DNA of 12,536 bases from a virus (Duplodnaviria > Heunggongvirae > Uroviricota > Caudoviricetes). The stretch's first letter is position 1. Each line of letters opens with the position of its first letter. This document shows positions 2,221 through 2,576 of this stretch, one piece after another. Location of the stretch: IMG/VR virus record IMGVR_UViG_2751185956_000013; one strand, written 5' to 3'. Below the pieces are notes generated by a model, which worked only from the letters and a program-made list of their open reading frames with translations, did not search any database and was not told the origin of the DNA. Both the position numbers and the translations under genes were made by a program.

Positions 2221-2280
2221 AAAAAAACGATGGGGCGGGCAGTCCGGAAGACGTCAGGCCGCAGGGATTTGACCCGCCCC
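2221..2280 (-). terminator. putative rho-independent terminator downstream of the PerC-family gene
   Basis: GC-rich inverted repeat GGGGCGGGC (2232-2240) / GCCCGCCCC (2272-2280) around a roughly 31-nt loop. On the minus strand it is followed directly by a T7 run (plus-strand A-run 2221-2227), 15 nt after the PerC stop. Confidence 0.5.
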
Positions 2281-2294
2281 TCCCCACTGGTGGT

Positions 2295-2576
2295 CTACCT
2301 TTGCCTATTGCCGCCATTTAACCGGAAGGCGTTACCGTTCGGTTGCGCTATCCCCATGCGGTGTTGCGTTTCGGTAACAGCTTTATGCAGGTCGCCAAAG
2401 TCCTCAACCTTCACGGGCGGGCGCTTCACGTTCTCCAGACACGTTTCACGGCGGCGCTTTATCCATTCCCGATCATCGTCCTCGGTGCATAACAGCATGA
2501 CTTCCATCCATCGCGCTGCGGCGCGTCGGTACATCCCTTTTGCTTCCAGATCCTCGGCTTTACTGTCGTTTACCAT
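2295..2576 (-). CDS. PerC-family transcriptional regulator (93 aa)
   Basis: Translation contains KAEDLEAKGMYRRAAARWMEVM...REWIKRRRETCL...RMGIAQPNGNAF, matching the PerC/Pch pattern (LEAKGxxRRAAxRW, RxxCL, PNGN). GGGGGAG RBS 5-6 nt upstream; start lies 2 nt after the SSB stop. Confidence 0.7.
   Translation of the reverse strand: MVNDSKAEDLEAKGMYRRAAARWMEVMLLCTEDDDREWIKRRRETCLENVKRPPVKVEDFGDLHKAVTETQHRMGIAQPNGNAFRLNGGNRQR

Follow-up and report, generated by a model that had tools for sequence, protein, structure and literature searches.

The 12,536-nt viral record IMGVR_UViG_2751185956_000013, here called the window and considered at its full length, carries a gene of the PerC family (perC) that is followed on the minus strand by a GC-rich inverted repeat and a run of seven Ts. 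An earlier note, made from the sequence alone, had taken the gene and the repeat for a self-contained, strongly terminated unit that encodes an activator of ler, the master regulator for the LEE (locus of enterocyte effacement). Judged by its gene content and surroundings, the window is a ~12.5-kb phage-inducible chromosomal island (PICI) inserted between yicC and dinD, and homology points to the segment behind perC being a phage cohesive-end (cos) region. The features at this locus are:

2187-2290, minus strand: homologue of a cos region, copied from between the HNH-endonuclease and terS genes in phages of the SfV/SfI/SfII/SfIV/ST64B/phiP27 type
2221-2285, minus strand: supposed hairpin and T7 run, with arms at 2273-2280 and 2232-2239 and the T7 at 2221-2227
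2232-2241, minus strand: TGCCCGCCCC, the exact 10-nt cohesive end of SfI, which is the 3' arm of the supposed stem
2295-2576, minus strand: perC open reading frame (ORF), 93 aa, MVNDSKAEDLEAKGMYRRAAARWMEVM..., matching Pfam PF06069
2579-3049, minus strand: SSB gene, directly upstream of perC and co-directional with it (Pfam SSB, E=1.2e-14)
2582-2589, minus strand: Shine-Dalgarno-like GGGGGAGA for perC, within the last SSB codons, as read from the sequence

Where matches to 2187-2290 fall outside islands, they are in prophages, flanked by the genes for an HNH endonuclease and a small terminase of the P27 family (terS), with those for the large terminase and the portal coming next. The HNH-terS intergenic region of the S1-JOR-02-A prophage is 100% identical over 89 nt, and the region between HNH and P27-family terS in the Sanji prophage is 96.8% identical over 94 nt. 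In the phage collection, SfII shows 97% identity to the segment, the matches to SfV and SfIV are split across both ends of the linear records, the SfI match lies at the very end of its record, and ST64B and phiP27 also match. Once the SfV ends are joined, the identity is ~95% over 98 aligned bases; the deposited SfV record ends ...GGGGAGGGGCGGGTCAAATCTCTGTGACCTGACGTCT and starts TCCGGACTGCCCGCCCCATCGTTTTTTTATACCCGCG..., and the start and end points of the SfV and SfIV records lie within the loop of the supposed hairpin. Sequencing of SfI virion DNA ends gave a 10-nt cohesive end, 5'-TGCCCGCCCC-3' (Sun et al. 2013, PMC3636060); the SfI fragments next to it closely resemble the SfV cos, from which they depart at a single base (PMC3636060), and the SfIV cos site was described as identical (PMC3851460). 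The annotated 'cos-site' of phiP27 is the 10-mer CGCCCGCCCC, which aligns with the 10-mer of the window, and nine of the ten cohesive-end positions are invariant in 7 aligned cos regions, the first base alone varying (C in phiP27). Homology between the island and the phages starts ~20 nt past the phage HNH stop and stops ~13 nt short of the terS start codon; given that these limits fall at the flanking phage genes, what was copied is the entire intergenic cos region with no further phage DNA. No second cos and no lambda-type cosN was found in the window. A literature search for the 10-mer returned no paper tying it to islands, and an SfV/phiP27-type cos is apparently unreported in islands like EcCIMP1, the PICI of commensal Escherichia coli MP1.

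When 2161-2294 was searched by itself, 1630 of the 5426 complete E. coli genomes had matches, mostly in prophages and at most six per genome, far above the number of perC carriers (299 of the 5426, counted as genomes with at least 80% coverage of a 418-bp stretch that includes perC). The segment is not bound to perC: it is kept in the XJ5.2 island, which has no perC, and lies 163 bp farther from perC in EcCIMP1. The cos core of the window belongs to the phage (SfV/S1-JOR) allele; XJ5.2 and EcCIMP1 have another core in common, for which no phage in the collection exceeded 87% over the full length; the terS-proximal half of these two islands' segment, which includes the cohesive end, is ~95% identical to SfV. 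This island-specific allele and its flanks are present in 338 complete genomes, always on the chromosome, at a median of one copy and a maximum of two, including the genome of O111:H- strain 11128 (H216), where the match is limited to the 163-bp island-allele cos segment. O111 is a serogroup of enterohaemorrhagic E. coli (EHEC) and usually LEE-positive, and O111:H8 and O111:H- are taken to be so here. The divergence between the window and XJ5.2 begins inside cos and continues through an indel that spans perC, which suggests a recombination tract with a prophage across cos and perC. By these alignments, the segment behind perC is an SfV/SfI/phiP27-type phage cos region, and perC and cos are neighbours that form no single functional unit.

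On the minus strand, the primase-helicase gene (3669-6167) is followed by an iteron region (3349-3668), a 100-aa ORF, SSB (2579-3049) and perC, whose ATG (2574-2576) lies 2 nt after the SSB stop (2579-2581). A scan of the minus strand from 2577 to 3800 gave no sigma-70-like promoter; perC is read on from the SSB gene and has no recognisable promoter of its own. Thus perC does stand at the end of the replication-gene block, as the last cistron after primase, origin and SSB, but the idea of a self-contained terminated unit does not hold for a gene that is read on from SSB and lies within an indel relative to a nearly identical island. That island, XJ5.2, is the best whole-window match; it is located between yicC and dinD, is 98.9% identical and lacks perC. 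The indel (~2291-2606) takes away perC and the last SSB codons and leaves the GC-rich segment in place. Since perC is absent from so similar an island it is dispensable, and we describe it as an accessory cistron that closes the replication operon on its 3' side. A perC-like gene is likewise variably present among EcCIMP1-like elements (PMC11773190).

The SSB C-terminus reads ...PPFDDETPFWGR in the window (2579-2610) and ...PPFDDETAVT in the perC-less island (L001, 6293-6320). The canonical acidic SSB tip is ...DDDIPF, and because neither end has it, the perC indel has remodelled the SSB C-terminus. The order primase, SSB and PerC is kept in Enterobacter and other Enterobacteriaceae (loci L013-L015). 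In Salmonella enterica islands (loci L010-L012, 4520-5276), a ProQ/FinO-domain gene replaces SSB after the primase, and the PerC gene overlaps its end by 14 nt.

Membership of the perC product in the PerC family, which the earlier note had claimed and proposed to check by alignment to PerC and Pch proteins, is correct and was already known. The product scores 102.4 bits against Pfam PerC PF06069 (E=1.6e-29; gathering score 22.6 bits), with residues 1-86 on positions 1-86 of the 90-position model. It aligns end to end with PerC of enteropathogenic E. coli (EPEC; plasmid pMAR2) at 35% identity (E=3e-19) and with PchA of EHEC Sakai at 34% identity (E=8e-19), two proteins that are 47% identical to each other. 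The name given by RefSeq and the Prokaryotic Genome Annotation Pipeline (PGAP) already is "PerC family transcriptional regulator". The closest characterised relative is EcCIMP1_025 (WP_000617443.1), with 91% identity over all 93 residues, and the window perC is its orthologue. A protein identical to EcCIMP1_025 is encoded together with the cos/orf61/PRiA4 module in O111:H8 strain 7-16 37A (L016, 2152-3577). A profile search of 1.84 billion representatives returned only 312 cluster representatives as relatives, which come in two forms, one full-length (~90-105 aa) and one, with many members, restricted to the N-terminal domain (55-80 aa) and matching positions 1-55 alone. Records with family members number 252 for plasmids and 22 for phages, both virulent and temperate, and islands carry them too; the carrier here is a mobile island, in line with the earlier description of the gene as island-borne.

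An AlphaFold (AF2) model of the window PerC, built from 34 homologues, has four helices, with a predicted local distance difference test score of ~90 for residues 1-50 and of 54-70 beyond. A phmmer search of PDB sequences gave no match below E=0.75, and a Foldseek search of the PDB with the model gave no neighbour below E=3. The window PerC is small and helical, and no match to a DNA-binding domain was recognised in it. Residues 6-50 also align to positions 8-52 of the 54-position NCBIfam model NF033650 (ANR_neg_reg) for Aar-type AraC negative regulators (ANR), at 29.1 bits (E=6.6e-7). With a curated cut-off of 32 bits, this score does not allow the window PerC to be classed as ANR. The corresponding scores are 31.1 bits for EcCIMP1_025, 18.2 for EPEC PerC and 13.6 for PchA; a Klebsiella relative (P0021), 75% identical to the window PerC, reaches 32.5 bits, which is high enough to pass, and goes by the name ANR at NCBI. 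The short relatives sampled from the profile search (55-72 aa) all fall below the cut-off. From these alignments the N-terminal 50 residues of PerC look distantly related to the ANR anti-activators, and the two families look related.

Published assays bear on what such a protein may do. LEE1 is activated by PerC and PchABC (PMC4764244; PMC11773190), and Pch displaces H-NS at LEE1, relieving H-NS silencing (PMC4764244). In Citrobacter rodentium, a LEE1-lux reporter was silenced in a dose-dependent manner by EcCIMP1_025 but activated by EPEC perC in the same set-up, and LEE1 was unaffected by the PerC-like genes that two other PICIs, EcCIEDL933 and EcCICFT073, carry (PMC11773190). The authors of that study suspected an ANR-like function for EcCIMP1_025, and ANR proteins are summarised there as binding AraC-type activators and H-NS (PMC11773190). 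PerC-like genes are frequent PICI passengers (PMC11773190; likewise Fillol-Salom et al. 2018), and their carriers are about equally commensal and pathogenic (PMC11773190). The switching-on of ler that had been ascribed to the window gene therefore does not transfer to it, its 91%-identical orthologue being a repressor of LEE1 and other PICI PerC-like genes giving no effect. Going by orthology, activation of LEE1 or ler by the window PerC is not supported; the sole effect measured for its orthologue group in the literature is repression. PerC probably acts through protein or nucleoprotein contacts that would alter H-NS or AraC-type complexes, as Pch and ANR proteins do.

Taken together, the comparisons make it likely that the window is a PICI with an accessory PerC, the orthologue of EcCIMP1_025, beside a hijacked SfV/SfI/ST64B/phiP27-type cos that is used for packaging by a helper. 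By analogy with cos-carrying islands, the element is most likely packed into SfV/SfI-type capsids via this cos. The SfV/SfI/ST64B/phiP27-type phages, which would be suitable helpers, combine HK97-like heads with a TerS of the P27 family and an HNH endonuclease. After induction and replication, the TerS, TerL and HNH of the helper would cleave concatemers of the island at 2232-2241 for packaging. At 12.5 kb each, three copies (~37.6 kb) would fill a capsid, helper genomes being 37-42.6 kb. Of the products of the replication operon, PerC would be made last. The cos reading would also offer an explanation for observations on EcCIMP1, the packaging mechanism of which was given as unknown by its authors, in a text that does not mention cos, and which is transferred by the P22-like phage Kapi1 with extremely low efficiency (PMC11773190).

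Several points weigh against this reading. Cleavage at cos and packaging are deduced from sequence comparison, and EcCIMP1, which has the variant segment, was mobilised only at very low frequency, by Kapi1 (PMC11773190). Only two of the eight sampled island-bearing genomes have a second copy of the segment that might come from a resident helper prophage. The hairpin with its U7 run can still form on the transcript, and a terminator role could be added to the packaging one. For PerC, the ANR score is below the NCBIfam cut-off, the proposed mechanism is drawn from work on Pch and ANR proteins, and the AF2 model is confident for residues 1-50 only, with no significant PDB neighbour.

A different role for PerC, in the conflict between satellite and helper and not in host virulence, would have the protein, produced along with the replication operon once the island is induced, modulate H-NS-silenced late genes of the island or helper, or regulators of the helper. 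The gene is co-transcribed with replication genes and adjoins cos, the Salmonella islands have a PerC gene in the equivalent position after a ProQ/FinO-type gene, the family is spread over plasmids, phages and islands and is not confined to virulence elements, and Pch works by displacing H-NS. Against such a role, perC is dispensable, being absent from the near-identical XJ5.2 island and variable in EcCIMP1-like elements, and the EcCIMP1 gene, located behind a ~700-bp non-coding stretch, may be expressed independently. We consider this role unlikely and keep to PerC as accessory cargo beside a cos probably used for packaging.

We rate as improbable a reading in which the segment is an intrinsic terminator only, closing the replication operon, with the similarity to cos a relic of prophage recombination that has no packaging role. 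The minus strand does carry the inverted repeat GGGGCGGG...CCCGCCCC, followed by ATCG and the T7; its arms are ~32-33 nt apart and would give the perC transcript a 10-pair GC-rich stem with one bulge and a U7 run starting 1 nt after. A long block of co-directional genes also ends precisely at the segment, and the inefficient transfer of EcCIMP1 by its known helper fits a cos devoid of function. However, a scan with a terminator consensus detected none at the segment. The segment can fold (minimum free energy -31 kcal/mol), but its folding energy does not stand out from that of dinucleotide-shuffled sequences (z = -0.29 and -0.98, less than one standard deviation away), and among 7 homologous sequences there were no compensatory changes in the stem, of which three of the ten pairs are broken, uncompensated, in the variants of XJ5.2 and EcCIMP1. 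When the whole window was searched against Rfam by E-value, no RNA family came up at 2187-2290. The consensus scan, the shuffles and the pair counts in the 7 homologues thus lend a terminator no support beyond bare folding ability. What does stay constant in all 7 sequences is nine of the ten cohesive-end bases. Moreover, a relic would not be expected to be 100% identical to the cos of a live prophage over 89 nt, with homology ending at the borders of phage genes, and copied cos sites are known to serve this class of islands. Of the strong terminator ascribed to the perC unit, then, the inverted repeat and the T7 are present; its role as a strong terminator of perC is not borne out by the scan, the shuffles, the absence of covariation and the occurrence of the segment without perC. 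Conservation across the homologues indicates that the segment is kept as DNA for packaging and not as RNA structure.

That the window PerC is a PerC/Pch-type activator of ler and LEE1, encoded by a gene that stands alone, ends in a strong intrinsic terminator and serves the island to turn on host virulence genes, is very improbable: family membership is clear, PerC and PchABC do activate LEE1, and the module has matches in O111:H8 and O111:H-, but identity to the proven activators is just 34-35%, the closest orthologue represses LEE1 where EPEC perC activates it, other PICI PerC-like genes do nothing there, perC lacks a promoter of its own, what was taken for its terminator is a phage cos region kept where perC is absent, and carriers are about as often commensal as pathogenic.

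PICI-borne PerC-like genes and cos-carrying PICIs are both known kinds, and the novelty of the packaging island with accessory PerC is modest. The PerC claim itself changes little, as the gene is already annotated, is a frequent PICI passenger and has a nearest characterised orthologue that has already been assayed; the label "PerC family" must not be taken to mean LEE activator. The useful result is the cos assignment, which names SfV/SfI/ST64B/phiP27-like phages as candidate helpers, rather than the P22-like Kapi1. EcCIMP1-like islands, whose packaging route becomes cheaply testable, occur in several hundred complete E. coli genomes out of the 5426 searched, O111 strains among them. More widely, a GC-rich inverted repeat and T-run at the end of an operon on a mobile element may be a packaging site and not a terminator. 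We see an even chance that 'type C' EcCIMP1-type PICIs, which have no recognisable packaging module or known route, are cos satellites of SfV/SfI/ST64B/phiP27-type phages with an HNH-dependent terminase. The cos core would then be swapped with prophages, helper range would be retuned, and a PerC/ANR-like anti-virulence gene would be cargo at the cos-proximal junction, spreading in commensals and EHEC. If so, the HNH-dependent cos piracy of SaPIbov5 would extend to enterobacterial islands.

The remaining features of the island are:

1-825, minus strand: DinD/Bro-N paralogue (PADLOC candidate defence family PDC-S13, E=3e-126)
960-1319, plus strand: orf119, in the right-end module (960-2160)
1312-1854, minus strand: PRiA4_ORF3 protein (Pfam PF07929, E=1.1e-42)
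1975-2160, minus strand: orf61, 61 aa, matching only PHROG 7271, of unknown function
3349-3668 (320 bp): iteron region, in which sets of GTAGGGATAA/T, both direct and inverted, surround an AT-rich core, adjoining the primase-helicase gene on its downstream side; probable origin of replication (ori)
3669-6167, minus strand: primase-helicase (Zn-ribbon, Toprim, D5_N, DUF5906), named 'phage/plasmid primase, P4 family' by PGAP
8069-8267, minus strand: C4 antisense RNA (76.7 bits), isrK (81.1 bits) and c4-a1b1 target motif (Rfam)
10004-10207, minus strand: AlpA-family regulator (Pfam Phage_AlpA, E=3.3e-8)
10314-11264, minus strand: 316-aa ORF between the integrase gene and alpA, with no Pfam or PADLOC match
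11283-12536, minus strand: tyrosine integrase, at the island end beside yicC (Pfam Arm-DNA-bind_3, Phage_int_M, Phage_integrase)

An integrase, AlpA, a primase-helicase with an adjacent iteron ori, one direction of transcription and a size of ~10-15 kb are the marks of Gram-negative PICIs set out in PMC6092414 and PMC11773190, and all are found here. The island also has an AntA-type antirepressor, and no capsid, tail, terminase, HNH or lysis genes were found among the genes of the window. The iteron unit GTAGGGATA(A/T) forms a dense set at 3349-3668, and the PICI ori has been described as lying directly after the primase-helicase gene (PMC6092414); this region is probably the replication origin of the island. 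The C4 and isrK RNAs fall within a 303-aa ORF (PGAP 'Icd-like') with a Pfam Ash domain at its residues 157-250. By the Rfam matches, 8069-8267 looks like an RNA immunity module of the P1/P4 type, and the 'Icd-like' ORF call probably spans RNA genes.

The right-end module (960-2160) and the cos segment are also present in EcCIMP1, O111:H8, Z1323HEC0399, 2017-03-3CC and an Enterobacteriaceae locus (L014). Within this module, orf61 starts just downstream of cos, where phages have terS, and may help to redirect packaging in the manner of Rpp. The 316-aa ORF lies at a place that is often taken by variable cargo in satellites. PADLOC models gave no match to perC, orf61, PRiA4_ORF3 or the other ORFs of no known function, with the exception of the DinD-like gene. 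This DinD/Bro-N copy adjoins the host dinD (L001, 2826-3650 and 4001-4825), and the two copies have no DNA similarity at the megablast level. At the borders of the XJ5.2 island (L001, ~3950-3985 and ~16270-16330), no exact direct repeats of at least 12 nt were found; both borders share GGTACACC/GTGTACACC motifs, and the island lies between yicC and dinD and not in a tRNA gene. The border motifs GGTACACC...GTGTACACC are probably integrase-binding or att sequences.

The window protein resembles PerC (EPEC pEAF/pMAR2) and PchA/B/C (EHEC Sakai lambdoid prophages) in Pfam family, length and the N-terminal motif KAxxLExKGxYRRAAxRW. It differs in its low identity to them (34-35%, compared with 47% between PerC and PchA), in that they activate LEE1 whereas its orthologue represses it, and in its carrier, a satellite island in place of a virulence plasmid or lambdoid prophage. 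The ANR proteins share the N-terminal alignment, and the repressing phenotype of EcCIMP1_025 fits with them; the window PerC, at 93 aa, goes past the 54-position ANR model with a C-terminal half that is conserved (FGDLHKAxxETQHRMGIAQPNGxAFRL). The cos regions of SfI/SfV/SfII/SfIV, ST64B and phiP27 share with the window the exact 10-nt end, ~100 nt of flanks at 91-100% identity and the orientation relative to the downstream genes. In these phages, however, cos is located between HNH and terS, whereas in the window it lies between perC and the 61-aa ORF, on an island without terminase, HNH or capsid genes.

Among islands, EcCIMP1 is of the same kind (integrase, AlpA, AntA, primase), and its right-end module of perC, cos-like segment, orf61, PRiA4_ORF3 and orf119 has ~99% DNA identity to that of the window. 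Its perC-like gene follows a ~700-bp non-coding stretch and no SSB, whereas the window perC abuts SSB; 163 bp separate its perC from cos, a spacer missing in the window, where it would fall between two CTGG repeats; and its central cos is island-specific, whereas that of the window is phage-identical. SaPIbov5 of Staphylococcus aureus and EcCICFT073 of E. coli are islands without a terminase of their own that are packaged via a carried helper cos site (PMC6092414), and the helpers of SaPIbov5 also need the phage HNH endonuclease, as relayed in PMC6092414 citing Quiles-Puchalt 2014. The window, known from sequence alone, is like both in being a terminase-less island with a helper-type cos. EcCICFT073 has a lambda-type cosN with its own cosB and Rpp, whereas the window copies the whole phage cos region, both flanks included.

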